A stretch of DNA of 64,000 nucleotides from Candidatus Levyibacteriota bacterium (GTDB taxonomy: Bacteria > Patescibacteriota > Microgenomatia > Levybacterales > UBA12049): assembly GCA_963790825.1 (NCBI GenBank), contig CAWBPM010000002.1, forward strand, positions 97,702 to 161,701. Direction: 5' to 3'. Shown piece by piece: positions 9,580 through 49,244 of this stretch. The notes beneath the pieces were generated by a model. That model saw nothing but the letters and a program-made list of their open reading frames with translations, had not been told where the DNA came from and did not search any database. The stretch's first letter is position 1, and every line of letters begins with the position of its first letter. The position numbers and the translations under genes were made by a program.

Positions 9580-9590
9580 ATTTAAAATCT

Positions 9591-10272: not shown

Positions 10273-10290
10273 AAGCCTTAGAATAATGCA

Positions 10291-11076
10291 TTATAACCTA
10301 ATACCCAGTTTCCCTGCAATTGCAGCTTGTGCTTTTTCTTCCAGAGTATCATCAAGTTTTGTAAGTGTAATATTTGTTTGATACTTTATTTGCAGCGCAG
10401 TTCTTGTAAGCCAATCTGCAAGCAGTGGATTTTTTGGCAAAAGAGGACCATGAAAATAACAGCCAATGGCATTTTTATAAACTACCCCTTCTGTTCCGTC
10501 CTGTCCATTATTTCCATTTCCTACCAGTATCTTTGCAAAAGGTTTTGCCTTTTCGCCGAGGTACGTTCTTCCGCCGTGATTTTCAAAACCTACAATAAAA
10601 GGTGAAGCAAAACCCCCCGCCAGATTCTTTAAGTAAATCTCTCCTACGGTATTGCCTATCAAACGTGGCTCATTGAGACCCGGATGCTTGGAAATCATAT
10701 CAAAAATTCCCAGTCCTTCAATTTTCTTCCCGATTCCCGGTTCATAATACTTACCCATGAGCTGCGGTGAACCACAAACAAAAAGAGAAGGAGTGTTTTT
10801 TTCAATAAGATTTTTTATTATCTGTCCCTTTTCCTTTTTAAGGTCCCGCATGACGATTTCCTGCTCCCTGTCCTGTGCACCACCACCAAAAAGTAGGTCG
10901 ACAGACTGCAACTCTTTAAAGTGCGTTTCCCTCTCAATTGGAAGTATTTTTACTTGAATTCCCCGCCACTCGCAACGTTTTGTCAGCGAAATAATATTCC
11001 CCCTATCTCCATACGTACTCATCAAAGTCGGATACAGCCAGCCAATACACAATGATAAATGTTTATTCATGTTCAT
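10291..11076 (-). CDS. gatD: lipid II isoglutaminyl synthase, glutaminase subunit (CobB/CobQ-like GATase)
   Basis: Motifs YGDRGNIISL, GGGAQDREQ, FENHGGRTY and CYFHGPLLPKNP match the GatD partner of MurT. Overlaps the murT stop by 4 nt. Confidence 0.75.
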   Translation of the reverse strand: MNMNKHLSLCIGWLYPTLMSTYGDRGNIISLTKRCEWRGIQVKILPIERETHFKELQSVDLLFGGGAQDREQEIVMRDLKKEKGQIIKNLIEKNTPSLFVCGSPQLMGKYYEPGIGKKIEGLGIFDMISKHPGLNEPRLIGNTVGEIYLKNLAGGFASPFIVGFENHGGRTYLGEKAKPFAKILVGNGNNGQDGTEGVVYKNAIGCYFHGPLLPKNPLLADWLTRTALQIKYQTNITLTKLDDTLEEKAQAAIAGKLGIRL

Positions 11077-17833: not shown

Positions 17834-19382
17834 TGGAAAGGCCTAACTTCCGCTTCAATCGCACTTCTACTTAAAATCTGCCGGTTATAGGGTCGCTCCT
17901 ATAAAATTTGAAAACTATCTCAACCTGGATGCAGGCACAATTAATCCGATTGAGCATGGTGATCCGTTTCTGTGCGAAGACGGAACTGAGGGTGATATGG
18001 ATATGGGAACATATGAAAAATTCTTAGATGAAGACATGGGGAAAAGCAATTTCGTAACAATGGGTAGGATTTACCAAAATGTCATTGATAAAGAGAGAAG
18101 ATTTGAGTATGACGGTGAAGACGTAGAAGCAATTCCGCATATCACCGATGAAATAACCAGGTGTATTTATACCTTGGCGAAGGAAAAAGATGCACAGATT
18201 GTTCTAATCGAACTTGGCGGTACAGCCGGAGAATATCAAAATATATTTTACTATGAAGCTTCCCGAATATTGGCACTTCGTAATCCGGGGGACGTAGTTC
18301 ATGTACATGTCAGCTATGTTCCGACTCCTAGCCATTTGGGTGAACCGAAAACCAAACCGACCCAGATTATCCGTTCGTACACTTAATTCCATGGGAATTC
18401 AGCCTGATTTTATTATAGCCCGATCGGACAGAATGCTGGATAAAAGACGACGCGACAGATTTGCCCTGTTTTGCAATATGCATCCTGAAGATATTATTTC
18501 CAATCCTGATATCGAATCGGTATATGAGATTCCGCTTAATTCTACATGAACAAGGACTGGATAAGCGCATCATGCATAAATTACATCTTCCTTTGAAGAG
18601 AGCCGAAACTGGACCGCTTGGAAGCAATTTATAACAAGAGTAAAAAATCAAGAAGAGAAAGAAATTACGATCGCAATTGTGGGGAAATACTTCGGTACAG
18701 GAGAGTATCAAATGCGTGATTCTTATGCTGCGTTGCTTGATGCCATTGACCATGCGGCTGCGGCAGAAAATGTAAAAGTTATAACTAAATGGGTTAATGC
18801 TGAAAAAATAGAGTCCGCAATAGAAGAAGCAAAAAGTACAAGTAAAGATATTATAGTTAGTTGTTAAGGAAGTTATCGGTGAGCCGAACGGAATAATTGT
18901 TCCGATAGGTTGGGGAGAACGCGGCAGCGAAGGAATGATTGAAGCTGTCAATTATGCGAAGAATAACAAAGATTCCTTATTTAGGATTGTGTTTTGGTAT
19001 GCAGCTGGCGGTAGTTGGATTTGCCAGGGATGAACTCGGATGGAAAGATGCTAACAGTGAGGAATTAGATCCTAAAACTTCCCATCCGGTTATTCATTTC
19101 ATCGCCAACCAAAAAGAATTGATAGCCAGAAGAGCTTACGGCGGGACCATGCGGCTTGGCGGTTGGGAAGCAATTGTTAAAAAGGGTACAAGGGCTTTTG
19201 AGATTTATAAGAAATCTCATGCTTTTATAAATGAGAAAAAAGGATTAACCAGCGAACGGCATCGACATCGTTATGAATTTAACGACGAGTTTGCAAAGGA
19301 ATTAGAAGAACACGGGCTGGTTATTGCAGCCCGATCGGTTAAAGAGAATTTGGTAGAAATTATTGAGCTAGCAGAAATCTGA
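17796..19382 (+). pseudogene. pyrG: CTP synthase gene, heavily frameshifted (at least 8 frame changes) and no start codon
   Basis: PyrG-like segments in alternating frames: [47 protein letters not shown]...DMDMGTYEKF, TQHS-like RSVRTLNSMGIQPDFIIARSDR, KEITIAIVGKYFGTGEYQMRDSYAALLDA, and the glutaminase domain YLGLCFGMQ...ERHRHRYEFN. No ATG precedes the N-terminus. Confidence 0.65.
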
Positions 19383-26472: not shown

Positions 26473-26704
26473 AATACACAAATTAAAAATATAAGTCTAT
26501 AAAATAATAACTTAATTACATATCCGAATATTTGATATCTTAACTTGTCATTCATGCCTGAATTCCCGTTGTTCGGAATACTACGAAACCGGACTGGACA
26601 AAAACTTAATATCCACAGTTCGAATCCTAATCGCGGAGCAAATTAGCCTCAAAATTGACTTCTTTTTGAATTGAGACAACAATGTATTTGTAAGGAGATA
26701 TTTT

Positions 26705-26893
26705 ATGAACCTCACAACAAGTCTTATCGTTTTTGCCGCAATTATTATATCCGTTAATAATTTCGTGTTGTTTTATGTAATTAAGAATAATGGAATACAT
26801 TCAAGAATACACTCGCTTGGTATGATAGTATTTTTGATTAGTCTTATTGAAATTGTGGCAATTGGAATTTGGGCTTATATCCACTTAAGATAA
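26705..26893 (+). CDS. small membrane protein (two TM helices)
   Basis: 62-aa hydrophobic ORF preceded by AAGGAGATATTTTATG. Confidence 0.35.
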   Translation: MNLTTSLIVFAAIIISVNNFVLFYVIKNNGIHSRIHSLGMIVFLISLIEIVAIGIWAYIHLR

Positions 26894-26954
26894 TGGGTTC
26901 TCTCCATTTCCATCAGTCGGTTTCCGAAACCGATAGTGTGGAAACCGGAATATT

Positions 26955-27431
26955 TTGAACTGCTATACTAAACTTATGAAGATGCTGAAACTTCTGACCG
27001 GAAGCGGAGACAAAATGGGCCCTTTCATTTGGCCGTTTGCAATCCTCGGCTTTACTTTATATTTTATTTTACCCTCTCTTTTTAGTATTCCCAAATCAAA
27101 TCTCTTAAACATTTTCGGTCTGATTCTTCTAATTTTGGGTCTTATTGTTTGTATCTGGTCCCAAATTTTGATATTGATAAAAGTCCCCAAAAAACAACTT
27201 ATCTTGATCGGTCCTTATGGTCTGGTAAAGCATCCTTTGTATACCGGGGTTTCTCTTTTGGTGCTTCCCGGACTTGGATTTTTGCTTGATAACTGGTTAG
27301 GGCTTTTATTCGGACTTGTTCTTTACATCATTACAAGAATTTACAGACCTGAAGAGGAAAAAAGAATGAAAAAAGAATTCGGGGAAAAATATGAAAAATA
27401 CTTAAAGAGTGTCCTCTTTCCTAGGTTGTAA
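26955..27431 (+). CDS. isoprenylcysteine carboxyl methyltransferase (ICMT)/phospholipid methyltransferase family membrane protein
   Basis: LILIGPYGLVKHPLYTGVSLLVLPGLGFLL...RPEEEKRMKKEFGEKYEKY matches the ICMT/PEMT family C-terminal signature. Confidence 0.65.
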   Translation: MNCYTKLMKMLKLLTGSGDKMGPFIWPFAILGFTLYFILPSLFSIPKSNLLNIFGLILLILGLIVCIWSQILILIKVPKKQLILIGPYGLVKHPLYTGVSLLVLPGLGFLLDNWLGLLFGLVLYIITRIYRPEEEKRMKKEFGEKYEKYLKSVLFPRL

Positions 27432-27609
27432 ACTAAGAAGTTGAATTAATTTTCTCAAAAGAAGAGATAAAGTAGGTTCTCCCCATTTACATTAGGTGGA
27501 GCTCTGTTTGGCCTTAAATCGTGCCTAAAAAGGATTACGGGAATCGAACCCTAAAAAATAGAAGTCGTATAAACCCGGATTTGTGACACAGGGCTAATTA
27601 CCTACTATA

Positions 27610-28314
27610 TTAGTAAAGTAATTTAAATGAATTCATAATTTTATTAAAGATTTCCTGCTGATTACTACTATATAAGCTGCCTGATTGCATAATATAGACA
27701 AAGTTTTTATCCTGGACGTATGCTGTTTGTCGTTTGTATTCAACGGGTTCAATATTAGATTTTGTATAAATACCCTCTAGAGTGCTGTGCAGCTGATTAG
27801 TCATAACAAAGTTAGCTATAACGGTATTTAGTCCATTTATCTCAGTTGAGTTATATCCTGTAGCTTCTGAGTAGAGACCATCATTTTCTTTAGCAAATGA
27901 TAATAAATCTTTATTATTTCCTATATCATACAACACTAAAGAAATGTTGCTATCATACATTTTGACTAAAGCAGGAGCGGAGTTTCTATTCATATGTAAA
28001 AGACCACTAGAGCCAGCAACTTGATACGCATTCTTTGTCAGCGGTGAATAAGCTCCTGTATTTACTACGTAAAAATCAGGATAATTGAAAGTATAGCCAT
28101 TTACCAAATCTATGTAAGTTTCCCAACCTTGTTCTCTTGGCTGACTATTATAGATCTGCTCAAATTTAGTTTGGTAATTAATCGGCAAGATGTTAGTATA
28201 TGTAAACAATAAATAAGAAACTACAAGCCCACAAAAAAAGGCTAAAATGATAAAAAGTAAAAATGGTATGGTTTTTGGTAATATTTTCTTGGCCATAGAT
28301 TCATTATGCACCAA
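27610..28314 (-). CDS. hypothetical membrane-anchored protein
   Basis: 234 aa with an N-terminal signal-anchor helix (IPFLLFIILAFFCGLVVSYLLF) and an Asn/Tyr/Ser-rich extracytoplasmic part. No known motif. Confidence 0.45.
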   Translation of the reverse strand: MVHNESMAKKILPKTIPFLLFIILAFFCGLVVSYLLFTYTNILPINYQTKFEQIYNSQPREQGWETYIDLVNGYTFNYPDFYVVNTGAYSPLTKNAYQVAGSSGLLHMNRNSAPALVKMYDSNISLVLYDIGNNKDLLSFAKENDGLYSEATGYNSTEINGLNTVIANFVMTNQLHSTLEGIYTKSNIEPVEYKRQTAYVQDKNFVYIMQSGSLYSSNQQEIFNKIMNSFKLLY

Positions 28315-28392
28315 TATAGAAGACTTGCAAAGGATGATATTTAAACCATCTCCTTGTCATATAACATCAAATTAACAATATGTTGCTCATGT

Positions 28393-28454
28393 AGGTTCAA
28401 ACGTCGACCTGCGACTCCACGCAGTGGATAGTCCCTTTATGGGGTAAGCGAAGC
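28393..28454 (+). repeat. family-A structured repeat, copy A1
   Basis: AGGTTCAAACGTCGACCTGCGAC-TCCACGCAGTGGA-TAGTCCCTTTATGGGGTAAGCGAAGC. Shares both ends and the double-hairpin layout with A2/A3, but the central hairpin sequence is swapped for a different 5-bp stem (TCCAC/GTGGA versus GATTC/GAATC). Confidence 0.7.
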
Positions 28455-28529
28455 TTAAGAGGTATAATTATTACACAATTATCATAAACATTTAGTATTA
28501 TTACTAAAATTGATTGGAGGTGATGAACA

Positions 28530-28673
28530 ATGATGGATCAAACAAAATGGGGACATGATATGATGGAATGCTGCAAGGAGCATTCTATGTCAAAAGAACA
28601 TCTTGAAGCAATGAAGAAAATGCTGGAAGAAAAACTAAAGTGGGTTAGTGAAGAACTAAAGAAAGCAGCATAG
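28530..28673 (+). CDS. small hypothetical protein (47 aa)
   Basis: Strong RBS GGAGGTGA 7 nt upstream of the ATG. Charged helical peptide MMDQTKWGHDMMECCKEHSMSKEHLEAMKKMLEEKLKWVSEELKKAA. Coordinates +/-1. Confidence 0.35.
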   Translation: MMDQTKWGHDMMECCKEHSMSKEHLEAMKKMLEEKLKWVSEELKKAA

Positions 28674-28940
28674 CAACAAAACAATATTGTGAAGCAGGAT
28701 GGGGCAAGTCAATAAACTAAATCTGAAGCTGAGGAAGTTACGTCTGGGATGTAAAACTACTCTTCTTGATGCTCAATAGTGGCTTTAACATTGTTTACGA
28801 TGCGGAGCTCGGTTTATTCATAATAAATTAGATACCAAGTATTACGAATACACTAACCAAGGACATTTTGGTGGGGATTACTATAAAGAAATTTTCCCTG
28901 AGCTTGTTCAAGCGATTAAAGAAGAGTTAGTTAGAAAATA

Positions 28941-28983
28941 GTTTCAAACGTCGGACTGTAGTCGGAACTCAGTTTAGCCTCAG
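28941..28983 (+). repeat. degenerate, truncated family-A-like repeat
   Basis: GTTTCAAACGTCGGACTGTAGTCGGAACTCAGTTTAGCCTCAG resembles the 5' half of family A (GGTTCGAACGTCGACC...). Confidence 0.35.
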
Positions 28984-29027
28984 AAATGACAAGAAATAGC
29001 ATAGTAGGATGGTGATATAATCACCGT

Positions 29028-29669
29028 ATGAATATAAATCTACATCTGATCAATGCATCAGGAACGCTAAATCCATTTGTCATAGATATTGAAAAGATTT
29101 TTCCTACGACTATTAAACGGATTAGGAAGGTATTGCCTGTTGATAATGTCGATATCATTGTTTGGGAAGATGCTGATTGGGCAATTAAAAAATATGGGCT
29201 AGGAGGACATACGATAAAAGCAAATACAGTAATAGTTTCCATTGATCCGAATAATCCCAAAGCAAAACAATCATTTCCTGAACGTTTTACTACAACACTT
29301 ATGCATGAATTGCACCATGCTACCCGTATGCAAGCACTAGGAGAAGGATTTATTCCACGACTGGAAGCATCAGTAAGAGAAGGACTAGCAGAACACTTTG
29401 AAATACAACTTACAGGTAAAAAGCCAGAAGTATGGGATAATGCACTAACAAAGCAACAACTCACAGAATTCATAAAAATAGCAAAAGAGAATAAAAGTAC
29501 GGAGGACTATTATCTCTATGATTGGTTATTTGGAAATAAAGAACAAAAGATACCAGAATGGACAGGCTACTCGGTTGGGTTTCAACTTATTAACGATTAT
29601 CTAGAGACACATCCTCAAGCTACTCCAGCAACTCTTTACAAAACGAAAGCAGAAGTATTTATAAAATGA
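29028..29669 (+). CDS. putative zinc-dependent peptidase (HExxH motif, DUF2268-like)
   Basis: HELHH motif (TTLMHELHHATRMQALGEG) in a 213-aa soluble protein. First cassette-like gene, followed by repeat A2. Confidence 0.4.
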   Translation: MNINLHLINASGTLNPFVIDIEKIFPTTIKRIRKVLPVDNVDIIVWEDADWAIKKYGLGGHTIKANTVIVSIDPNNPKAKQSFPERFTTTLMHELHHATRMQALGEGFIPRLEASVREGLAEHFEIQLTGKKPEVWDNALTKQQLTEFIKIAKENKSTEDYYLYDWLFGNKEQKIPEWTGYSVGFQLINDYLETHPQATPATLYKTKAEVFIK

Positions 29670-29700
29670 GTCTTACCTCTGCGCTAAATAGTACTGTACC

Positions 29701-29763
29701 AGGTTCGAACATTGGCCTGCGACGATTCGAAGAATCTAGTCCCCTTGTGGGGTAAGCGGAGCT
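29701..29763 (+). repeat. family-A structured repeat, copy A2
   Basis: AGGTTCGAACATTGGCCTGCGACGATTCGAAGAATCTAGTCCCCTTGTGGGGTAAGCGGAGCTG. Starts about 30 nt after the stop of the 29028-29669 gene. Confidence 0.7.
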
Positions 29764-29824
29764 GATATGCTTTGATATATTTTGTTAGTCTCAAGGTTGC
29801 TTCTGGTATAATGGAACTATTCAT

Positions 29825-30169
29825 ATGGATGAGACAGTAAAATTGGTAGTTTTTGTACCTGAAACTCATGCAGATATAGTCAGAGAAGCTATGGGCAAGG
29901 CAGGAGCTGGAATAGTGGGAGATTATAAATACTGTAGCTTTTCAGTTAAAGGAACGGGAAGATTTATCCCGCTCGATACTGCACATCCATTTATTGGTAA
30001 GGTAGGCAATTTGGAAGAAGTAGAGGAAGAACGAATCGAAACTGTTTGTTATAAGAAAGACTTGGAAAAGATAATTGCAGCTATAAAAAAGGTTCATCCC
30101 TATGAAGAAGTTGCATTAGACGTTTATCCTTTGGTTTTAAATCCTCATGAAACAACATATAAGAAATAG
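29825..30169 (+). CDS. hypothetical protein, PII/CutA-like fold suspected (resembles NIF3-family insert domain)
   Basis: 114 aa. KLVVFVPETHADIVREAMGKAGAGIVGDYKYCSFSVKGTGRFIP...EERIETVCYKKDLEKII pattern. Family assignment is from memory only. Confidence 0.3.
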   Translation: MDETVKLVVFVPETHADIVREAMGKAGAGIVGDYKYCSFSVKGTGRFIPLDTAHPFIGKVGNLEEVEEERIETVCYKKDLEKIIAAIKKVHPYEEVALDVYPLVLNPHETTYKK

Positions 30170-30232
30170 TTCCTCACATATTCAACCAGGGAGAGCTCAG
30201 GCTAGTCCCAGTTTTACTAACTTGAATAGGAT
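30168..30232 (+). repeat. family-B repeat, copy B1 (B core + A-like CTAGTCCC segment + inverted partial B core)
   Basis: GTTCCTCACATATTCAACCAGGGAGAGCTCAGGCTAGTCCCAGTTTTACTAACTTGAATAGG. The forward core ATATTCAA and the inverted TTGAATA lie about 45 nt apart. Begins 1 nt after the stop of the preceding gene. Confidence 0.65.
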
Positions 30233-30258
30233 AACAAAACCTCTGATATAATTCTCAT

Positions 30259-30696
30259 GTGGCAATAAAATTTGAATTTCGTGATATGACTGACAACGAA
30301 TATAAACAAGAGCAGTCTGCGTTCGATGAACACGGGTTAGAGTTTGGTAATCCTCCCGAGAAGCAAGAACGTTTTGGATTTATAGCCACTGAAAATGAGG
30401 AATTTGTAGGTTGCTCAAGTGGATTAGCACAAAAAAATAATGGTCAATATGGCAAATACTTCTATTTGAGTGATTTATTGGTTGAAAAAAAATATCGAAA
30501 ATATGGCTATGGAAAAAAGCTTTTAGAGTTGCTTGAAAGTAAACTAAAGTTGCTTGGTATAGAATATGTTTGGACATGGACAGCAGGTTATGAAGCCCCA
30601 CCTTTTTATCTAAAACAAGGATATAAGACTTTTACAACATTTGAGAATTATTACCCGTCTGGTCATGCTAGAGTTGGATTTATAAAAAAGCTATAG
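30259..30696 (+). CDS. GNAT family N-acetyltransferase
   Basis: Acetyl-CoA binding region LLVEKKYRKYGYGKKLLELLE (Q/RxxGxG/A-like) in a 145-aa protein. Confidence 0.65.
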   Translation: MAIKFEFRDMTDNEYKQEQSAFDEHGLEFGNPPEKQERFGFIATENEEFVGCSSGLAQKNNGQYGKYFYLSDLLVEKKYRKYGYGKKLLELLESKLKLLGIEYVWTWTAGYEAPPFYLKQGYKTFTTFENYYPSGHARVGFIKKL

Positions 30697-30707
30697 AGCT
30701 CTAAAGT

Positions 30708-30770
30708 AGGTTCGAACGTCGACCTGCGACGATTCGAAGAATCTAGTCCCCTTATGGGGTAAGCGGAGCT
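30708..30770 (+). repeat. family-A structured repeat, copy A3
   Basis: AGGTTCGAACGTCGACCTGCGACGATTCGAAGAATCTAGTCCCCTTATGGGGTAAGCGGAGCT, 4 differences from A2. Begins 12 nt after the GNAT stop codon. Confidence 0.7.
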
Positions 30771-30848
30771 AAATACCTTACGTTAGAATCATAATTTAGA
30801 TTGATAAAACAAGCCAAATATACAACTCTCTTTAGATAGTTTTGTAAA

Positions 30849-30876
30849 AGGTATGCGGAGTTGAATGTGTGAGGAA
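30849..30876 (-). repeat. mosaic junction: A-3'-end-like segment fused to an inverted family-B core
   Basis: Plus strand reads GGTATGCGGAG-TTGAATGTGTGAGGAA. GGTATGCGGAG resembles the A end GGTAAGCGGAG. The reverse complement of the rest is TTCCTCACACATTCAA, which is the B core with 1 mismatch. Confidence 0.55.
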
Positions 30877-30914
30877 TCATTGACTTGCCTTCTTAATCGT
30901 GCCACACTATTTGT

Positions 30915-31553
30915 ATGGAAGAGCAGGTAAAATCGTTTCAACTTTCCCCAGCCCCTGATAAGAACCACCATAAAAGAGTCATTATGTACGGAATAGGGGC
31001 AATATTTCTTTTGATATTAGGTATGGGAATTGGATATTTAATAGGAATAAATAATACTGTCAGCTATTCAATAAAACCACAGACAGAAACATTAAAGCAA
31101 AATTCAAATACTACCATATTGTCAATTTCTCCTTCCCCAACTGATGACCAAATCTTAAATATGCTTCCTACGCTGGAGCCAGAGTTTCAATGGCAACAAG
31201 TAAAAACAGCACAATTTACTTATCCTTTAACGTCAAACACACAATTATCTGGAGAGCAGAGAATTGGAACTCAAATGGTGCAGGATGCAAATAGTTGGCC
31301 GACACCATCGTTTGCCCCCAGTCACATCGATTTACCAACATTGCTAAAGAATGGTTGGAATGAAGATATTACCTTAGATACAGGAGGTGTAGGAGGAGGA
31401 CAGCAAGGATTTAACAAATTTGAAGGGGGAAAAGAGCGAATTCTTGTTTGGGGAACTTCAATAGGCCCATTGGTTCCATCCGCTAATGGACCGGATGTTC
31501 TCAAATGCCCCTGTACTAGGCAAACAACTGTTTTTATCAGCAATCCCTTCTAA
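30915..31553 (+). CDS. hypothetical membrane-anchored protein
   Basis: 212 aa with a TM helix at residues ~23-45 (VIMYGIGAIFLLILGMGIGYLIG), then a Gln/Thr/Pro-rich extracytoplasmic domain. No motif. Confidence 0.45.
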   Translation: MEEQVKSFQLSPAPDKNHHKRVIMYGIGAIFLLILGMGIGYLIGINNTVSYSIKPQTETLKQNSNTTILSISPSPTDDQILNMLPTLEPEFQWQQVKTAQFTYPLTSNTQLSGEQRIGTQMVQDANSWPTPSFAPSHIDLPTLLKNGWNEDITLDTGGVGGGQQGFNKFEGGKERILVWGTSIGPLVPSANGPDVLKCPCTRQTTVFISNPF

Positions 31554-31603
31554 ATTATAAAAATTATAAGTATCATTAATCCGTTCATGGGCTAAAGTAA
31601 AAA

Positions 31604-31630
31604 TTCCTCACATATTCAACCAGAGGGAGT
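31604..31630 (+). repeat. family-B repeat, copy B2
   Basis: TTCCTCACATATTCAACCAGAGGGAGT. Potential CCTC/GAGG stem. Followed 8 nt later by an ATG opening a 25-codon ORF. Confidence 0.6.
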
Positions 31631-31707
31631 AAAATTATGCTTAGAACGTTTCAGGCAGATAGACAAATTCTTTATGTAACCTTTTCAGAGTTTGGTATAC
31701 TTAATTC

Positions 31708-32184
31708 ATGTTAATTAGAAAAGCAACAATTAACGATGGGCAACAACTGATTGAAAAACTCGCAGAATTCGACGAGTACCTTACTCCATTATTTTCGCCA
31801 GAAATTAATCCCTTTGTCCAATATAAAGATAAAAACAAGACGTTTGAAGAAGTAGTGACGGAATGGCTAAATAACCCAGAATATATTCTTTTTGTTGCAG
31901 AAGATAACGGAAGTTTACTCGGTCATATATGTGGAACAGTTAAAAAGAAAAAATACTCTGTAAAAGATAGGGAAGGATCAGTAGAAGAATGGTTTGTTTC
32001 AGAAGAATATAGGCACCAAGGAATAGGTAAACAACTTTATCAAGCACTTTTATTAGAATTCAAAAAAGCAAAGTGCACTCATTTAAAATTACGTGTGTTT
32101 ACCGATAACAAGAAAACAATAGGTATGTATCATAAAATGGGTTTTATGGATCTAGAGTTTACTTTGATTAAAAAACTAGAATAA
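31708..32184 (+). CDS. GNAT family N-acetyltransferase
   Basis: VSEEYRHQGIGKQLYQALLLEF acetyl-CoA binding motif. 158 aa. Confidence 0.65.
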   Translation: MLIRKATINDGQQLIEKLAEFDEYLTPLFSPEINPFVQYKDKNKTFEEVVTEWLNNPEYILFVAEDNGSLLGHICGTVKKKKYSVKDREGSVEEWFVSEEYRHQGIGKQLYQALLLEFKKAKCTHLKLRVFTDNKKTIGMYHKMGFMDLEFTLIKKLE

Positions 32185-32194
32185 TCAAGTAATA

Positions 32195-32222
32195 GTTCCC
32201 CGCATATTCAATCAGATGGGGC
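32195..32222 (+). repeat. family-B repeat, copy B3 (compensatory CCCC/GGGG stem)
   Basis: GTTCCCCGCATATTCAATCAGATGGGGC. Where B2 has CCTC...GAGG, this copy has CCCC...GGGG at the equivalent positions. Confidence 0.6.
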
Positions 32223-32333
32223 AAATTATTATAGTCTCAACCAACTATATCGGACTGTACCAACTCCAAATAGAATTCTAGTTTTGGTTAAGATTTGCAA
32301 TCCAATCCTATAGCTGATATGTTTCTTGTAATT

Positions 32334-32935
32334 ATGCCAAAAGAATTTGAAGGTATTCTTGTAGCTCTCGAAGGAATTGATAATGGGGGTAAAAGTAGCC
32401 ATATTAATATCCTAGAAAGAAGACTTATAGCAAAGGAATTTCGTGTGAGATTACAAAAGAACTAAGCACACCAGTAGGGGAACTTGTCCGGAAGTATTTA
32501 AGAGAGGGTAATTTTTCTCCGCATCTGAAAACTTTACTTTTTGCAGCCGATAGAGTTGAAAGAGTTGATAAGCAAGTCAAACCAGCACTCCAGCAAGGAA
32601 AAGTCGTCCTTGCTGATAGATGGTCTCTTTCAGCAGTAGTGTACCGAGGCGTTGAGGGATTTGATGCTGAGTATGTTTTGGCAGTGAATTCTAAAACCCT
32701 GCAGCCAAATAAGATTTTCCTTATAGATATACCTGCTGAACTTTCAGTAAAACGGGGCGAATTAGGGAACAAACCACATCCGTATTCGATTGAATTTCTT
32801 GATAATGCAAGGAGACACTATCTTGAATTAGCAGGAAAAGATTCAGACATTGAAGTAATCGATGGAACACAATCTTTTGATGTGATAAATAACCTTCTCC
32901 TTCAACGAATCTTGAAATTAAGAGAGGGTAAATAA
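32334..32935 (+). pseudogene. tmk: thymidylate kinase with one -1 frameshift (pseudogene or 1-nt deletion error)
   Basis: N-terminus MPKEFEGILVALEGIDNGGKSS (P-loop) ends at a TAA near 32461. The rest (ELSTPVGELVRKYLREGNF...LADRWSLSAVVYRGVEG...) continues in the -1 frame to 32935. Restoring one A in TTACAAAAG (to TTAACAAAAG) rejoins the frames. Confidence 0.6.
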
Positions 32936-33006
32936 TGGCGAGAAAAAGACTTGAAGATCAGTAGAAAAAGATAATTTAGTTTATATTTATTCTTGACCTT
33001 TTGATT

Positions 33007-33534
33007 TCACTTATACAGACCTTTATGAATAAAGGGAATAAGAGCTAAAACTACAACATCCTCGTAAAGTTTATCTCTCGTAATCAAATCTTTAGTTAAT
33101 AGTCCAACGGCTCCGTTATTTTGCTTTGAATTGTGTTTTTTAAAGACAGTATCGATTGCATCGCCCAACTCCTTACCCTGTTTTACGAGTTGTGTAACTT
33201 TTTCTGGCAAAAAGTAAGTATCTGTTTTTGCGCTACCGGTTTGATCTTCAGATTTAATAACTACCCATGTAAATGAACTAAGCATACCACCGACTATCTC
33301 AACTCCACCCTCAATTCCTATCCAATAATCAGCTTTTGGAAATATTTTTACAACATTGTTAACCCTGTTTATGGCTCCCTTAATTGTTTCTTTGTCTCCT
33401 ATTGGTTGGCCTGCTACTCTCGACTCAACCGATACAGACTCGATTTTTACATCTTTTGTTTTAAATACTTTCTTGAAGGCGTTTTCAACAGCCCTTATTT
33501 TAACTGGATTGGTAGAAGCTATAACGATTTTCAT
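33007..33534 (-). CDS. yjjX: inosine/xanthosine triphosphatase (YjjX/DUF84 non-canonical NTPase)
   Basis: MKIVIASTNPVKIRAVENAFKKVF...VESRVAGQPIGDKETIKGAINR matches the YjjX family. Start taken at the internal Met, giving a 4-nt overlap with the upstream gene; the ORF as listed extends to 33594. Confidence 0.6.
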   Translation of the reverse strand: MKIVIASTNPVKIRAVENAFKKVFKTKDVKIESVSVESRVAGQPIGDKETIKGAINRVNNVVKIFPKADYWIGIEGGVEIVGGMLSSFTWVVIKSEDQTGSAKTDTYFLPEKVTQLVKQGKELGDAIDTVFKKHNSKQNNGAVGLLTKDLITRDKLYEDVVVLALIPFIHKGLYK

Positions 33535-34301
33535 TTTAAAAGATTGAGTATATCCTGTTTTATTTTTGGTTTTCCCTCTGAACCTAACAACCATAAAGCT
33601 CTATCAAAAGTAATCCAATTTATCCCAGCTTCTTTGCATGCTTTGTTCCACAACAACTTAACTTGCTGTATGTTTTTATCTGTCATTTCGTTATTCTCAA
33701 CAAACCCCATCAAATGAGCAATACGAACATCGTGTATGTCGACCGGTTGTAAGACAGACCCAATATCATTATATTTGAAACCAAAAGTGGAAATCATGGC
33801 CCTAAAAAAGAGATTTCCTGTTTTCGGCCCCATACCTCTAAAATCCTGAATTTTGCCTACTGCTTCTATTGCTGTTTTAGAATCTGTAAACATTTTTGTC
33901 GGGTCGCCATCATAATATTCTTGTAACTTTTTGGAATTTGCCTTATAACGAACAACTGCTTCATTAGGGTAGCGAGGCTTCATATATTCAGTTAGAATTT
34001 TAAACAATTCTTCACCACTCAAATCTCGAATGTATGAGGGTGTAAAAAATTCTGGTTTTTGTTGATAACATCTTGTTGCTCCCGCATATAAAACCCTTCC
34101 TTTAATGGCGTAATCGAGTTGGATTACATAGAATAGAAATAAAGATTGTCGAAGCGGGCTAGCTTCTTTTGGGACATAATCTTCTACATTTCTAAATTCT
34201 GAAAAAACACCTTCACGAGCAAGAAATCTATTTGTAACAGTTGTTACAAACTCCGACACAGCTAAACCTTCTTCATTTTGTAGTTTTCTTTGTCTTCCCA
34301 C
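33531..34301 (-). CDS. HhH-GPD superfamily DNA glycosylase-like protein
   Basis: Helix-hairpin-helix FRGMGPKTGNLFFRAM followed about 20 aa later by VDIHDVRIAHLMG. This resembles the LPGVGxKTA...VDTHxxRV pattern of Nth/AGOG-type glycosylases. No Fe-S cysteine cluster. Confidence 0.45.
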   Translation of the reverse strand: MGRQRKLQNEEGLAVSEFVTTVTNRFLAREGVFSEFRNVEDYVPKEASPLRQSLFLFYVIQLDYAIKGRVLYAGATRCYQQKPEFFTPSYIRDLSGEELFKILTEYMKPRYPNEAVVRYKANSKKLQEYYDGDPTKMFTDSKTAIEAVGKIQDFRGMGPKTGNLFFRAMISTFGFKYNDIGSVLQPVDIHDVRIAHLMGFVENNEMTDKNIQQVKLLWNKACKEAGINWITFDRALWLLGSEGKPKIKQDILNLLK

Positions 34302-34534
34302 TACACAATATTAGCTCGCAGATTGAATAAAATCAACACAAAATTATGCCTGATAATAAGTTCTGATATCATCCACCAGTAAAATAAGACGATGAAAGTT
34401 CTTTATTTCCTAACAAGTTGCCGACAAAGAGATAACTTCGCTTATTAAGGAAATATCAAAGTTATTCTAATATCACGACTTTCGTAAATATTATTATCTA
34501 TTATTTTGATTGTACATTTCTCCGTAATACTAAG

Positions 34535-34580
34535 TTCCCACATATTCAATCCCGGTTTGATCGAAATCAACCAGAGGAGT
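34535..34580 (+). repeat. family-B repeat, copy B4 (with 17-nt palindromic insertion)
   Basis: GTTCCCACATATTCAAT-CCCGGTTTGATCGAAAT-CAACCAGAGGAGT. The core is interrupted by an insertion containing the palindrome TTGATCGAAATCAA. Confidence 0.55.
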
Positions 34581-34595
34581 ATTCCGGCAAAGCAT

Positions 34596-36252
34596 TCAAT
34601 AATCTTCTAAAGTTGAGGTATCACCGATAGGGAGGCCGAGTTCTTTCGCCTTCAAAATTCTTCGCATAATCTTACCTGATCTCGTCTTTGGCAGCTTATC
34701 GATAAATTCAATTTCTCTGGGATATGCATGACCTGCAAGGTATTTTTTTACGTGTTCTGCCAGCTCTTTCTTCAATTCTTCAGACGGCTGATAATCTTTT
34801 TTCAAAACAACAAATGCTTTTATGATTTCCCCACGGAGTGGGTCGGGTTTGCCGAATTACTCCCGCTTCGACAACAGCCGGATGTTTAACCAGCGCGCTT
34901 TCTACCTCAAAAGGTCCTACCCGTTCACCTGAGGTTTTAATAACATCGTCAGCCCGTCCGATAAACCAATAATATCCTTCAGGATCTTTTTTCGCTTTAT
35001 CACCTGACAAATACCAGCCATTTAAGAAGTAACTGTTATATTTCTCTTCATTCTTCCAAACCGTTCTCATAATCGATGGCCAAAACGGTTTCAGACACAA
35101 ATTTCCCTCTTGACCGTCTGAAACAGGCTTCCCTTCGTCATCTAAAATCGCAGCCTGCATCCAAGGAAGTGGCTTTCCCATTGAGCCGGGCTTTACGTCC
35201 AGAGAAGATAGATTAGATATCATAATCGATCCGGTTTCTGTTTGCCACCAGCCATCATGGAAATACATACCAAACGTCTCCTTTCCCCAAATAACTGCTT
35301 CCGGATTTAGCGGTTCACCGACGGATGTTAAATAGCGAAGACTGGACAAATCGTACTTTTTCGTAAGTGCTGCTCCTTGAGCCATAAGCATCCGGATTGC
35401 GGTAGGTGCGGTATACCAAACGGTTACTTTATGTTTTTCAATCAATCCATACCATACTTCAGGATCAAATCTTCCTCCATGAACAAAGGTAGTAATACCT
35501 AAGGACCAGTTACTTAAAATGCTATAAACTATGCCTGTTACCCATCCCGGATCGGCAGTACACCAATACACATCATCGGGTTTCAGGTCAAGTATTAATT
35601 TCGCGCTGGCATGAGACTGAACAATACCCGCATGTGCATGAACAATACCCTTCGGCTTACCGGTGGTTCCTGAGGTATACAACATGAATGCATAATCTTC
35701 AGGCTGAGTATGAACTACGGAGAAGGTCTCAGCTTGCAAATCAAAATCTGCACGGAATTTATCATCGTCAACAACGATGACATGCTCTAAAGCAGGCAAA
35801 TCTTTTATTACCGAATTGATTCGTACGGCTAGATCTTTGTTAGTGATGACGACTTTTGCTTCAGAATTTCCCAATCTGTCTTTTAATGCATCTTGCTGGA
35901 ATGCCGAGAACATACTTCCGGCAATTGCTCCGGTTTTTAAAATACCGAGAAAAGAAATAAATAATTCCGGAATCCGAGGGAGGAAAATAAATACACGGTC
36001 TCCTTTTTTGACGCCTTGGGAAGTTAGGTAATTTGCAATTTTATTGCTTTGTTTCGAAAGTTGAAAGAAGGAATACTCACTTACTTTTCCATCTTCCGAT
36101 TCGAAGATAAGCCCAATTCTATTTCCGTTTCCTCTCTCAATATGTTTATCGACTGCGTTATAAGCACTATTCAGCGATCCATCTTCAAAAAAAGCGATAT
36201 CTTTTTTAGCTGCTTCAAGAAGTGGGTGGGACAGTAGATACTTGTTATCCAT
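34596..36252 (-). pseudogene. acs: AMP-forming acyl/acetyl-CoA synthetase with one +1 frameshift near the C-terminus (pseudogene or sequencing error)
   Basis: 490-aa ORF with the AMP-binding motif YTSGTTGKPKG ends out of frame (…EAGVIRQTRPTPW…). The downstream 69-aa ORF encodes the authentic C-terminus (KAFVVLKKDYQPSEEL…LPKTRSGKIMRRIL). The frames rejoin if one base is removed in GGAGTAATTCGGCAAACC. Confidence 0.6.
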
Positions 36253-36734: not shown

Positions 36735-39000
36735 TTATTTCTTATTTACCAACTTTCTCTCAAACTCTGCAATATTTTCTCTGACACTGTCGATGACATC
36801 AGGAGCAATAGAAACGCTGGTTATGCCATATTCTACTAATTTTTCCAGAAGATCCGGATACAAAGAAGGCGCCTGTCCGCAAATAGACGCTGTGATATGG
36901 TGCTTATGAGCAGTTTTGATAACATGTTCAAGCGCCCACAAAACCGCTTCACTCCGTTCATCAAATTCCGCTGCCACCTCGCTATTGTCCCGATCAGTTC
37001 CCAAAATCAACATGGTTAAATCATTTGATCCGATCGAAATACCGTCAATACCAACTTTTATAAATTCGTCAAGTAAAATAACATTCGAAGGAATTTCTAC
37101 CATCATGAAAAGCTTGAATGTCGGAGTTCTGTAAAGACCCGAAGCATTAATAATTTTCTTGACTTCAATCAGCTCATGAACGTTCCTGACAAACGGAATC
37201 ATGAGCCAAAGATTTTTCAACATCTTTTTGTTTCTGATTATTTTAATAGCTTCAAGTTCCATCTCGAAGACCTCGGGATCATGAATATACCGGTAAGCCC
37301 CGCGGTAACCCAGCATAGGATTTGGCTCGATAGGCTCAAATTCTTTCCCGCCGTCCAAGCCCCGATACTCATTCGTTTTTAAATCCGACGCCCGATAAAT
37401 AACCGGACGGGGATTAAAGGCTGAGCAAAAAGTCTCAAGCCCCAGAGCTAATTTATCAATAAAAACTTTTTTCTTCCCGTCCCGGATGAGTTTTTTCGGA
37501 TGAGTGCCGATATCTGCTATCATAAACTCCGCACGCAGTAACCCAACACCGTCGACATTTCGTCTGGCTACTTTTTCCGCGAGATCCGGTTGGGCAAGAT
37601 TAACATAAACTTTTGTCGCAGTTTTTATATATGCATGTCTTGCTTCAGGAATAGAACTCATCGCGCTTGGTTTGAAGCTCCCTTTGTATATTTCTCCCTT
37701 TGCTCCGTTTACCGTGATGACCTCTCCTGTTTTTAATATTTTTGTTGCCGTTTCGGTACCGACGACTGCCGGAATCCCCAGTTCCCGGGAAACAATCGCA
37801 GCATGTGAAGTTCTGCCGCCTTTTTCAGTCACGATAGCTACAGCTTTTTTCATCGCCGGAACATAATCGGGATTTGTTTGCTCTGCAACCAGTACATCTC
37901 CCGGGAGAACTTTATTAATTTCAGACACCGAATGAATTACTTTCCGCGGGGCCGCTGGCAATTCCCGGAGAAGCAGGGGCACCGGTAAGAAGAAGCGGTA
38001 GATTAATAACTTCCTCTTTTACCTTTTTCGTATGAGTAGTTGTAATTGCCCGGGTTTGGACAATATATACTTTATTTTTCTCAATCGCCCATTCGATGTC
38101 CTGGGGAAAATAATAATGATGCTCAAGTTTTTTTGCAAGAAGTGCGAGTTCTAAAATCTGATTGTCGGAAATTTTCTGTTTTTTCTTTTCATGATCCGTT
38201 AACCTAATCTCTTTATTTTTTGTCCCAACCTTTTTCAACATAATATCTTGCGGAGAGATAATTTTTTTCAAAATCTTAAGATCATCTTTTTTAACTTCAT
38301 AGTGATCGGGCGTAACCGTTCCCTGAACAATATTTTCTCCGAGACCCAAAATTGCTTCGATGGTAATGACAGACTTATCATTAGTTACCGGATCAAGGGA
38401 AAACATAACACCGGATTTTTCTGACTCAACCATTTTTTGAACAACGATTGCGATACCGACTCTGAAATGATCAAAATGTTGTTCATGCCGGTAAAATATG
38501 GCACGCGGTTCAAAAAGTGATGCCCAAGCTTCTTTGACTGCGAAGAGTAGATTTGTTTCACCTTTTATATTAAGATACGTTTCCTGCTGTCCTGCGAAAG
38601 ACGCAGTTGGCAAATCCTCAGCAGTAGCGCTTGAACGCACCGCAACAAGTGCGTCTTTAAAAATACCACCCAACATTTTATACGATTTAAAAATGTCATT
38701 GATTAATTGTTCCGACATACTCGCTTCCATAATCAGTTTTTTAATAAGTGAGGAAACTTGAGCAAGTGATTCGGGTCTGTCAAAACCGGTGGTTCCCAGT
38801 AGATGTTTAATTTTTGTGGTCAGGTTATTTTCGTGAAGAAACTGGAAATAAGATTGGGAGGAAACAATAAACCCATTCGGAACGGGAAATTTGGCTCTGG
38901 TCATCTCGCCCAAATTAGCACCTTTTCCGCCAACAACGGGAATGTCATTTTTATCTACTTCGGAAAACCAAAGAACTGATTTACTTTTTACGGGCATCAC
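36735..39000 (-). pseudogene. ppsA: phosphoenolpyruvate synthase (pyruvate, water dikinase) split by one frameshift
   Basis: N-terminal 359-aa ORF is the PPDK_N ATP-grasp (PEP/pyruvate-binding) part. C-terminal 415-aa ORF has the phospho-His mobile domain GGRTSHAAIVSRELGIPAVVG and the PEP-utilising TIM barrel. The junction near 37925-37980 falls in a G/C-run (AGCGGCCCCGCGG). A 1-nt indel rejoins GIASGPA to RKVIHSV. Confidence 0.6.
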
Positions 39001-45199: not shown

Positions 45200-45766
45200 C
45201 CTTTATTTTCCCTCTTGACAATTAGGAAAAGGATATGATTTACTAAATGCAGAGATATGAAAACAACTGCCCCGATAAATAAACTAGCTAAAGGTTTTAC
45301 CCTCATCGAGCTCTTAGTTGTTATCGGCATTTTAGCAATTCTTTTGGCAATCACCTTAATCGCAATTAATCCGGCCAGACAATTCTCCCAGGCAAATAAT
45401 ACAAAAAGAAGCAGCGATGTGAATGCTATTCTTAATGCCGTCAATCAGTATATGGCAGATAATAAAGGTGCTCTTCCCACAGGTATTAGTACGACAGCCC
45501 AGACGATTAACGGAGTAGATTTTGGAGCCATGTGCACTGCATTGGTTCCTACATATATAGCCGCACTTCCGGTAGATCCATTATCTAATGCAAATGCGGT
45601 ACAGTCTACAGATTGCACGAGTACTACATGGAATACAGGATACGTAGTACAGCAGTTAACAGGTGGCAGCAATAGGCTTACGGTATCCGCACCGGGAGCA
45701 GAGCTGGGGGCCACTATCTCCGTAACCAGATAAAGAGTTTCTCCTTATTAATTTAATTATTATTAA
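45200..45766 (+). repeat. 567-bp perfect direct repeat, copy 1 (pilin promoter + pilin gene + 33 nt 3' flank)
   Basis: Identical base-for-base to 48076-48642 by direct comparison of the printed sequence. The flanks diverge immediately outside both ends. Confidence 0.85.
45257..45733 (+). CDS. pilA: type IV major pilin (prepilin with 13-aa leader, G|FTLIELLVV)
   Basis: MKTTAPINKLAKG|FTLIELLVVIGILAILLAITLIAINP class III signal. 158 aa, with two Cys near the C-terminus (disulfide loop). A TTGACA hexamer lies 35 nt upstream. Confidence 0.8.
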   Translation: MKTTAPINKLAKGFTLIELLVVIGILAILLAITLIAINPARQFSQANNTKRSSDVNAILNAVNQYMADNKGALPTGISTTAQTINGVDFGAMCTALVPTYIAALPVDPLSNANAVQSTDCTSTTWNTGYVVQQLTGGSNRLTVSAPGAELGATISVTR

Positions 45767-48075: not shown

Positions 48076-48642
48076 CCTTTATTTTCCCTCTTGACAATTA
48101 GGAAAAGGATATGATTTACTAAATGCAGAGATATGAAAACAACTGCCCCGATAAATAAACTAGCTAAAGGTTTTACCCTCATCGAGCTCTTAGTTGTTAT
48201 CGGCATTTTAGCAATTCTTTTGGCAATCACCTTAATCGCAATTAATCCGGCCAGACAATTCTCCCAGGCAAATAATACAAAAAGAAGCAGCGATGTGAAT
48301 GCTATTCTTAATGCCGTCAATCAGTATATGGCAGATAATAAAGGTGCTCTTCCCACAGGTATTAGTACGACAGCCCAGACGATTAACGGAGTAGATTTTG
48401 GAGCCATGTGCACTGCATTGGTTCCTACATATATAGCCGCACTTCCGGTAGATCCATTATCTAATGCAAATGCGGTACAGTCTACAGATTGCACGAGTAC
48501 TACATGGAATACAGGATACGTAGTACAGCAGTTAACAGGTGGCAGCAATAGGCTTACGGTATCCGCACCGGGAGCAGAGCTGGGGGCCACTATCTCCGTA
48601 ACCAGATAAAGAGTTTCTCCTTATTAATTTAATTATTATTAA
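48076..48642 (+). repeat. 567-bp perfect direct repeat, copy 2
   Basis: Identical to 45200-45766 (offset 2876 bp). Confidence 0.85.
48133..48609 (+). CDS. pilA: type IV major pilin, exact duplicate of 45257-45733
   Basis: Encoded protein identical over all 158 aa. Lies inside repeat copy 2. Confidence 0.8.
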   Translation: MKTTAPINKLAKGFTLIELLVVIGILAILLAITLIAINPARQFSQANNTKRSSDVNAILNAVNQYMADNKGALPTGISTTAQTINGVDFGAMCTALVPTYIAALPVDPLSNANAVQSTDCTSTTWNTGYVVQQLTGGSNRLTVSAPGAELGATISVTR

Positions 48643-48767
48643 TCCATTATTTATTTGTATTTTGTTTAATTTTATTTCTTATGAAGATAGCCTTTTTAAG
48701 TATACAACTTTCAAAATATTCCCTATTGACAAATAATTGAAAAAACTGATTAAATTAGTGCATAGAT

Positions 48768-49244
48768 ATGAAAACAACTGCCCCGATAAATAAACTAGCT
48801 AAAGGTTTTACCCTCATCGAGCTCTTAGTTGTTATCGGTATTTTGGCAGTATTACTGGCAATTACTTTAGTTGCCATCAATCCGGCCAGACAATTTTCCC
48901 AGGCAAATAATACAAAACGAAGCAGTGACGTAAACTCCATTCTGGATGCAATTAATCAGTACATGGCAGATAATAAAGGTGCTCTTCCCACAGGTATTAG
49001 TACAACTGCCGCAACAATTAATGGGACGGGCTTTACAGCTCTCTGTAGCGCTTTAGTACCTACTTATATAGCCGCTCTTCCGACTGATCCATTATCGAAT
49101 AATTCTGCCGTACAGTCCAGTAGCTGTACAAGTACAACATGGAATACAGGATACGTAGTACAGCAGTTAGTAGGAGGAGGTAATAGGGTAACTGTTTCTG
49201 CTCCTATGGCTGAGCTTAGTGCAACTGTTTCAGTAACGAGATAG
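48768..49244 (+). CDS. pilA: type IV major pilin, divergent third paralogue
   Basis: Same leader and N-terminal helix (MKTTAPINKLAKGFTLIELLVVIGILA). About 30 substitutions concentrated in the central/C-terminal variable region. Own TTGACA-N17-ATTAAAT promoter-like sequence upstream. Confidence 0.8.
   Translation: MKTTAPINKLAKGFTLIELLVVIGILAVLLAITLVAINPARQFSQANNTKRSSDVNSILDAINQYMADNKGALPTGISTTAATINGTGFTALCSALVPTYIAALPTDPLSNNSAVQSSSCTSTTWNTGYVVQQLVGGGNRVTVSAPMAELSATVSVTR

Follow-up and report, generated by a model that had tools for sequence, protein, structure and literature searches.

Integrases that target tRNA genes duplicate the 3'-end sequence of the tRNA at each insertion, and small self-cleaving ribozymes (hammerhead, twister, pistol, hatchet) are found in clusters around small genes. 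Genomes of bacteria of the candidate phyla radiation (CPR) are tiny, and little is known about the way in which they gain accessory genes. Here we describe a block in which single genes alternate with short repeats (families A and B), located between 26.6 and 34.6 kb of a 64,000-nucleotide stretch of contig CAWBPM010000002.1 of a Candidatus Levyibacteriota bacterium; this whole 64-kb stretch is hereafter called the window.

Tandem islands bounded by repeats of tRNA or tmRNA 3' ends, and integrase-less cis-mobilizable elements (CIMEs) built up by accretion, have been documented previously (PMC3146451, PMC5704250). As in those islands, of which the ssrA genomic islands (ssrA-GIs) of Dehalococcoides are an example, and as in CIMEs, the block shows same-strand repeats of tRNA 3'-end type, many in a row at a synteny break, with accessory, strain-specific cargo in units that carry no integrase of their own. 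The units of ssrA-GIs and CIMEs measure 10-30 kb, however, whereas here they hold one gene in 0.3-1 kb; in the window the array has no intact target tRNA beside it, no integration module was found within the 64 kb, and the repeats are far more diverged, some of them with inserted hairpins. A second comparison is offered by the cassettes of T4-type phages, in whose hyperplastic regions, as in the block, short modules made of a stem-loop and a strong promoter (promoter early stem-loops, PeSLs) flank single ORFans, hybrid modules occur and no dedicated recombinase is needed. Such behaviour, with the production of gene-plus-PeSL circles, is established for PeSLs (PMC2839356, PMC4122927). Our block differs from them in lying on a CPR bacterial chromosome, in stem-loops that are not terminators with G/C tracts and in a tRNA-end-like frame, and the comparison concerns modules read from sequence, with no recombination products observed. 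Integron arrays and clusters of attC sites without an integrase (CALINs) likewise combine a short gene with a structured site, in one orientation, with similar cargo and possibly no integrase nearby, but no element here follows the attC core rule, a hairpin of attC type is predicted for one A copy only, each gene has a promoter of its own and the sites are tRNA-end-like. As for the ribozyme clusters, two kinds of structured elements of ~40-70 nt alternate with small genes in both cases, with stems that vary and junctions that are conserved, while the elements described here, known from sequence alone, match none of the corresponding Rfam models.

Family A comprises three copies with a 66-nt core, all on the plus strand and confined to the block within the window: A1 (28390..28455), A2 (29698..29763) and A3 (core 30705-30770, with a tail running to GTTAGAA at 30788), which score 91-97 bits with the family covariance model (91.7, 91 and 97.1 bits, respectively). 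Patterns made from either half of the family A repeat gave three matches each in the window, against 0 expected. Five copies of family B were found in the block, four of them on the plus strand, namely B1 (30166..30211, tail GAGCTCAGGCTAGTCCCAG), B2 (31589..31647, GGGCTAAAGTA...GGGAGTAAAATTATGCTTAGAAC), B3 (32190..32240, stem CCCC/GGGG, tail GGGGCAAATTATTATAGTCTCAA) and B4 (34530..34579, with an internal insertion of ~20 nt), and the fifth being a partial, inverted copy on the minus strand (30859..30881; inverted repeat I4, 22 nt, 86% complementary) that together with B1 brackets the first acetyltransferase gene, GNAT1, and the A copy at 30705. The family B pattern had 7 matches in the window against 0.59 expected, 5 of the 7 inside the block. 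The names A1-A3 and B1-B4 come from an earlier description of this DNA made by a model (the sequence-only reading), and these copies do lie where it had placed them, at frequencies far from chance. Its list was nevertheless incomplete, as at least five more degenerate copies are present (26616-26639, 26894-26948, 27469-27513, 28776-28819 and 28937-28979), so that the left border lies ~800 nt further to the left than first described, now at 26.6 kb. The other ~54 kb of the window hold no copies, and a BLAST comparison of the whole window with itself revealed duplicated pilin genes as the sole other dispersed repeat. The plus strand carries 12 of the 13 copies, whatever the orientation of the neighbouring gene, the exception being the partial B copy. 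This includes two copies outside any sense 3' untranslated region (UTR): A1, which does not follow any long open reading frame (ORF) in the sense direction, and B4, which is so placed because it stands between two minus-strand genes.

The head RTAG(G)TTC recurs in all elements, as does the tail G(C)GGAGC(T), and the continuation of the tail is shared across the two families: ..TTAGAA by the copies at 30705 (A) and 31589 (B), TAGTCTCAA by those at 29698 (A) and 32190 (B), and GAGCTCNGTTTRGCC by the elements at 27469, 28776, 28937 and 30166. Since head and tail are the same in A and B, these constitute one superfamily, and not the two independent structured families that had been proposed. The copies at 29698 and 30705 alone are 94% alike over 63 nt, most others being 60-80% alike over short stretches.

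The frame shared by A and B corresponds to the final 27 nt of a tRNA-Asn gene, GTAGGTTCGAA...CCTGCG...GCGGAGCT. The reference is a contig from a metagenomic genome, L212, which opens inside a tRNA gene end (GGTTGTAGGTTCGAATCCTACCTGCGGAGCT) that shares 90% identity with annotated tRNA-Asn genes over 30 nt. In family A exact blocks follow each other in tRNA-Asn order (GTAGGTTCGAA 11/11, CCTGCG 6/6, GCGGAGCT 8/8). The best-preserved tRNA-Asn 3'-end-like fragment, E0 (CAGTTCGAATCCTAATCGCGGAGC, 26616..26639, plus strand), was located by Smith-Waterman alignment 145 nt past the RsmI stop codon, at the left edge of the block, and equals the tRNA-Asn 3' end of L212 at 19 of 24 positions; in a scan with the 27-nt end its score was 32, the maximum in 150 shuffles of the window being 30. 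It is followed by AAATTAGCC, by an AAATTA tail like that of other elements and by a TTGACT -35 box. In short, E0 and family A qualify as direct repeats copied from the 3' end of a target tRNA, and A and B are one family that appears to have originated from the 3' end of tRNA-Asn. Immediately upstream of E0 (26590-26615), CGGACTGG...TTAAT resembles the anticodon stem-loop of tRNA-Asn with an interruption of ~9 nt, and E0 may be what remains of a longer portion of the tRNA; tRNA models did not detect a tRNA portion at 26590-26615.

The position of the block was compared with the gene order of relatives, in which UvrB, LexA and RsmI are followed by 0-2 genes and then by His_Phos_1, PPDK, Hpt, a response regulator, T2SSE and T2SSF. 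Both syntenic flanks are kept in the window, where ~10 kb separate RsmI (end at 26472) from PPDK (from 36735), the conserved synteny being interrupted by the block. Given this difference the block is accessory relative to those distant relatives, in agreement with the sequence-only reading. The RsmI protein of the window is 100% identical to one encoded on a single 751-kb contig, the closest other RsmI is 72% identical, and the names among these matches indicate CPR bacteria of Microgenomates type. Seven of the ten block proteins are present in the protein collection, and each of them is alone in its 90% cluster, except that one GNAT is accompanied by a start-codon variant that comes from the same sample.

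One cargo gene, that of the second acetyltransferase (GNAT2, 31708..32184, plus strand), has homologues in other contexts, with 73% (L213), 70% (L214) and 65% (L212) identity, the last two in metagenomic genomes. Neighbours differ in every genome: on the upstream side these homologues have a methyltransferase, a divergent small gene and an HD protein, versus a 212-aa ORFan in the window. The promoter block of GNAT2 is conserved. Related elements stand on both sides of the homologue in L214 and L212. Upstream, L214 presents GGGCTAAAATAG-(GUCUA/UAGAC hairpin)-GGAGCAAAATT, to be compared with GGGCTAAAGTA-(UUCCUC/GAGGGA hairpin)-GGAGTAAAATT of the window, where B2 occupies this place; its downstream element begins AAAATAGGTTCTAAC. 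The downstream element of L212, GGTTTCTCCCCAC..GTCGGAGCTTTC, is close to the window element at 27469; in L213 a head-like AATAGGTTTTTAC precedes the gene, but no element follows it. L212 encodes a protein with an excisionase-type HTH_17 domain, most of its other genes having no family match. At ~3760-3810 of L212, upstream of the HTH_17 ORF, there are four tandem copies of CCCTATTTAGTC, which may be protein-binding repeats of a mobile element.

The covariance model of family A had no matches in the syntenic loci of relatives plus 80 RsmI-anchored metagenome loci (~0.6 Mb), nor in L211, described below, and the B pattern had no real match in the relatives' loci (roughly 0.6 Mb). The short exact pattern matched at least 118 loci in genome contigs, which a motif check showed to be chance matches; only chance matches were obtained with the A and B patterns in viral contigs, the strict A pattern found nothing in JGI metagenomes, and BLAST with family A had no match in phage and plasmid records.

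A parallel of layout was found through the 212-aa ORFan, which has a single homologue (P0129) among 5.8 billion proteins, the match being essentially with the N-terminal 50 aa. P0129 is encoded in L211 just past a tRNA-Ser gene, in a region (9199-11821) where this gene is followed by four same-strand 45-nt repeats between four single genes of 0.4-0.9 kb lying on either strand. The start of the L211 repeat, AGAAAAGTTCC, resembles the head of B in the window, AGAAATAGTTCC. Positions 30915-31064 of the window and 10001-10150 of L211 are ~70-80% conserved over the promoter and the N-terminal ~50 aa (MEEQVKSFQLSPAPDKNHHKRV... plus a membrane anchor); beyond these the ORFan and P0129 are barely related, which suggests a leader module shared between the two.

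The A and B repeats could well be decayed att-type direct copies of a tRNA-Asn 3' end, left by the serial insertion of small modules and later shuffled by repeat-to-repeat recombination, a reading that we hold tentatively and that falls somewhat short of an even chance. The source site would be the T-arm plus the 3' strand of the acceptor stem, in a tRNA-Asn gene ending GTAGGTTCGAA..CCTGCGGAGC. Very small modules, each carrying a single gene together with its promoter and an att-like end, would have inserted there one by one; the copies would then have diverged, with the family A lineage gaining a 35-nt insert between duplicated GCG, and recombination between repeats would have shuffled or deleted copies to give the hybrids, a gene remnant and the one inverted copy. 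A recombinase acting in trans would have made the array, and the units may have moved as circles. The conservation of one strand, including the two copies outside a sense 3' UTR, fits a direct repeat at the DNA level, and the constant strand, the tRNA-end frame, the location of E0 at the synteny break and the presence of elements around cargo of variable context altogether favour a DNA-level site duplicated by site-specific insertion. We would class the block as a variant of tandem accretion at tRNA targets, the mechanism being a tentative part of this reading. What would be new here is the grain, since the units are single self-promoted genes of 0.3-1 kb with neither a tRNA gene nor an integrase nearby.

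Several observations weigh against insertion at a tRNA end. The tRNA-targeted elements known so far exceed these 0.3-1 kb units in size by a factor of 10 to 100. The window lacks an intact tRNA-Asn gene and has just tRNA-Asp and tRNA-Gly genes ~10 kb off. A Pfam scan of 50 ORFs of the window detected no integrase, transposase or other recombinase domain (it covered all ORFs in the block plus most others of at least 110 aa, the remaining ones, including acs and PPDK fragments and the Hpt, response-regulator, T2SSE and T2SSF genes, being placed by synteny only), as the sequence-only reading had remarked of integrases. The generic alignment score of family A alone against the tRNA end was not significant, so the case for this family consists of exact blocks noticed after the fact and of the frame that it shares with E0, and family B is no more than loosely similar to the tRNA-Asn frame. 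Compensatory changes in one of the A hairpins (see below) are not explained by simple decay of an att site. The whole block is missing from relatives, but no close strains were found, so that gain or loss of individual gene-repeat units between genomes was not seen. Finally, the L211 repeat scored 23 against the tRNA-Ser end, with a null median of 22, which is not significant, so that L211 serves as a parallel of layout only.

The anatomy of the units bears on a second explanation. The order is that of a stop codon, a repeat starting 1-50 nt past it (with the stop codon inside the repeat head in two cases), a promoter and the next gene, so the cassette-like layout of one gene and one repeat per unit, and the distance from stop codon to repeat, were correctly described before. 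From 29028 to 32184 each plus-strand gene is preceded by an extended -10 box (TGATATAAT, TGGTATAAT or TGGTATACT, consensus of the modules TGnTATAAT), the end of which lies 6-13 nt from the start codon. The mapped promoters, all on the plus strand, are TGATATAAT at 29013..29021, 7 nt 5' of the ATG of the DUF2268 gene; TGGTATAAT at 29804..29812, upstream of the gene for a 114-aa protein; TGATATAAT at 30244..30252, 7 nt 5' of the GTG of GNAT1; and TGGTATACT at 31693..31701, 7 nt 5' of the ATG of GNAT2, in a block conserved in L214 and L212. With this 7-nt spacing, present in three of the four, the corresponding mRNAs should be leaderless. Boxes of -10 type at equal spacing are also found in front of several core genes of the window, and the cargo therefore uses host-type signals. 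Window-wide, a TATAAT-like box ending 6-8 nt from the start codon, with no Shine-Dalgarno sequence, was observed for several genes, and leaderless mRNAs seem to be common in this organism.

Stem-loops that lead directly into a consensus promoter and recur between the ORFans of a variable region, as observed here, are the arrangement of PeSL-type cassettes. It is rather unlikely, though worth serious thought, that the elements are composite terminator/promoter modules of this kind, spread and shuffled by homologous recombination without a dedicated recombinase, their likeness to a tRNA being ancestral or incidental. Each module is made of one or more stem-loops and then TGnTATAAT at 6-13 nt from a start codon, and modules can be aligned over their full ~100 nt including the promoter, as is the case for the spacers of the DUF2268 gene and GNAT1; the ORFan-rich cargo, the hybrid copies, the gene remnant and the lack of a recombinase in the scanned ORFs would also be expected, the hybrids being suggestive of recombination between modules. 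Copies that are mostly 60-80% alike over short stretches are, on the other hand, a poor substrate for homologous recombination, and the stem-loops lack T-tracts, those of B being weak besides. Terminator-like sites are not enriched (4 observed against 7.9 expected), so that the elements are not ordinary rho-independent terminators, an outcome left open by the sequence-only reading. Two copies are not 3' of a co-oriented gene, and PeSL-type modules leave unexplained both E0 at the synteny break and the tRNA-Asn gene at the start of L212. The two explanations are not exclusive, since modules derived from att sites could later recombine homologously.

Structure predictions were examined for a function at the RNA level, by which tRNA-like or otherwise structured 3'-UTR elements, cut or bound (for instance by tRNA-processing enzymes), or new self-cleaving motifs, would define or protect the mRNA ends of the accessory genes; we consider this clearly unlikely. 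Three consecutive hairpins are predicted in family A, with independent agreement between our own model and RNAalifold. The middle one, Pb, is UCCAC/GUGGA in the copy at 28390 and GAUUC/GAAUC in the other two, that is, four pairs have changed on both sides with pairing kept, and 98% of cells are paired in comparison with 24-53% when the partners are slid. With three A sequences the covariation count is anecdotal, and we take it as suggestive and no more. Family B forms a weak hairpin with a conserved 13-nt loop starting with ACAU and variable stems (CCUC/GAGG, CCCC/GGGG, and GUCUA/UAGAC in L214), and most copies of the elements begin no more than 50 nt past a stop codon, as would suit such a role. 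Nevertheless, no family of Rfam 15, including all self-cleaving ribozyme classes and tRNA, matched the elements in scans of the whole window or of 111-nt slices at gathering or permissive thresholds, even at an E value of 10 on the slices, the best scores being 8-21 bits versus family thresholds of 38-90. Single-copy folding energies are ordinary (z -0.3 to -1.7), the Pb hairpin is missing from the related motif of L212, and the orientation of the copies at 28390 and 34530 tracks the array and not the neighbouring gene. The two distal hairpins of A fall in a 35-nt stretch (30728-30765 in one copy) that is bounded by duplicated GCG and looks like an insertion, and motifs related to it (GTTCGAAAATAGTCCCGATGGGG) occur twice in L212. 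A pseudoknot between the loop of B and downstream sequence was also considered and dropped, the pairing being present in B1 only.

A genome-wide family of small mobile repeats of the repetitive extragenic palindromic (REP), miniature inverted-repeat transposable element (MITE) or BOX type, dense here by chance, is very unlikely. GTAG-type heads, hairpins, a modular head/core/tail organization and the GCG duplication flanking the 35-nt insert of family A recall such repeats, but the elements are confined to the block, with no copies in the other ~54 kb, and hence do not look like a window-wide family of this sort; whole elements have no terminal inverted repeats or consistent target duplications, and no RAYT or transposase was found in the scanned ORFs.

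A non-canonical integron array or CALIN, in which A and B would be attC-type sites folded as single-stranded DNA, is most improbable and was rejected on the attC core-site rule, the folding and the per-unit promoters: one gene per repeat in a single orientation, cargo of GNATs and small membrane proteins, tails (GTTAGAA, GTTAGTC) near GTTRRRY and a bottom strand of the copy at 30705 that folds, in the manner of attC (57-141 nt, with extrahelical bases), into a single long imperfect hairpin with a TCTAA/TTAGA closing stem (z = -3.5) are set against the absence of RYYYAAC paired with GTTRRRY in all copies read by eye (the best being TCTAAA...GTTAGAA in one copy, while one or both boxes are missing from the others), the lack of the closing stem and of the long-hairpin form in the copies at 29698 and 28390, folding energies of just -1.3 to -5.4 kcal/mol for B, a promoter in each unit and no intI among the ORFs scanned. 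The sequence-only reading had itself noticed that neither family follows the core rule, and no literature reports of such integron arrays in this lineage were found.

The block suggests that genes can enter singly at a site of tRNA origin, with a much finer grain than in classical tRNA-targeted islands, which would be functionally near an integron without attC or IntI. More broadly, and as an unlikely conjecture, CPR bacteria could possess an integron-like form of gene capture in which single self-promoted cassettes use a site that mimics a tRNA 3' end (tRNA-Asn here, possibly tRNA-Ser in L211), the recombinase is encoded elsewhere, and structured inserts such as the covarying A hairpin are part of the site. 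If a trans-acting recombinase were found, this would represent a new cassette system and make accessory genes simple to locate in these lineages; if there is none, the block would still clearly exemplify, on a chromosome, a hyperplastic region punctuated by promoter/stem-loop modules.

Along the block, the first unit after E0 is a 62-aa membrane ORF (26705..26893, plus strand) with no Pfam or NCBIfam match. It is followed after 1 nt by a degenerate element, TGGGTTCTCTCCATTTCCATCAG... (26894..26948, plus strand), whose head resembles that of the element at 27469 and which continues into a strong hairpin and a T-rich tail. Next come an ICMT/PEMT-family methyltransferase gene (26955..27431, plus strand; PF04191, PF04140) and the plus-strand element at 27469..27513, with head GTAGGTTC, a CUCCCC/GGUGGAG hairpin and tail GGAGCTCTGTTTGGCC, which resembles the element downstream of the GNAT2 homologue in L212. 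In its left part the block has a single inverted unit, which encodes a 234-aa membrane-anchored protein (27610..28314, minus strand) with a weak PsbP-like match. At the 3' flank of this gene there is a fragment similar to a T-arm plus acceptor, AGGGTTCGATTCCCGTAATCCT (27519..27548, minus strand). This fragment (GGGTTCGATTCCCGTAATCC) is unlike the tRNA-Asn-like frame; a search for the source tRNA led to no identification, and no tRNA was called at 27519-27548.

Downstream of A1, a 47-aa ORF (28530..28673) and a degenerate element, X (ATAGTGGC...GCGGAGCTCGGTTTATTC, 28776..28819), precede a gene remnant, an open frame with no start codon (28826..28941), all on the plus strand. The TAG stop of the remnant lies within the head of the short A-type element at 28937..28979 (plus strand, tail GGAACTCAGTTTAGCC, covariance model E 0.037), which retains the head and the T-arm-like hairpin, lacks the 35-nt insert and aligns with the B1 module through the promoter. 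The gene that follows encodes a DUF2268 HExxH zinc protease (29028..29669, plus strand; PF10026, E 2.5e-29). After A2, the 114-aa protein (29825..30169, plus strand), whose TAG stop is within the head of B1, proved to be a stand-alone NIF3 insert domain (residues 159-261 of PDB 2gx8, E 7e-32). This corrects the description of the cargo, in which it had figured as a PII-like protein, the DUF2268 protease, the two GNATs, the ICMT/PEMT protein and the remnant being as described. GNAT1 (30259..30696, plus strand; PF00583) lies between B1 and A3, and the membrane-anchored 212-aa ORFan (30915..31553, plus strand) between the inverted B copy and B2. To the right of GNAT2 and B3, the thymidylate kinase gene tmk (32295..32935, plus strand) reads in two frames, through a frameshift or a sequencing error. 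Two minus-strand genes complete the block to the left of B4, one for an NTPase_I-T (DUF84) protein (33007..33594; PF01931, E 1.6e-55) and the other for a 256-aa protein that is weakly HhH-GPD/AGOG-like (33531..34301).

Core genes are split across frames elsewhere in the window as well as in tmk (32295-32935): pyrG (129 + 147 aa, 17997-19382), acs (490 + 69 aa, 34596-36252) and PPDK (415 + 359 aa, 36735-39000). This may reflect either many pseudogenes or indel errors of the long-read type. An exact 567-bp duplication (45200-45766 and 48076-48642) contains a pilin-type (N_methyl) gene and its promoter, with a third pilin copy at 48716-49243 that is 79% identical; the duplication could be recent or an assembly artefact. 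Lastly, a gene for a 'putative phage metallopeptidase' (PF18894, 58297-58680) is located among core genes, adjoining that of the DNA polymerase III delta subunit.

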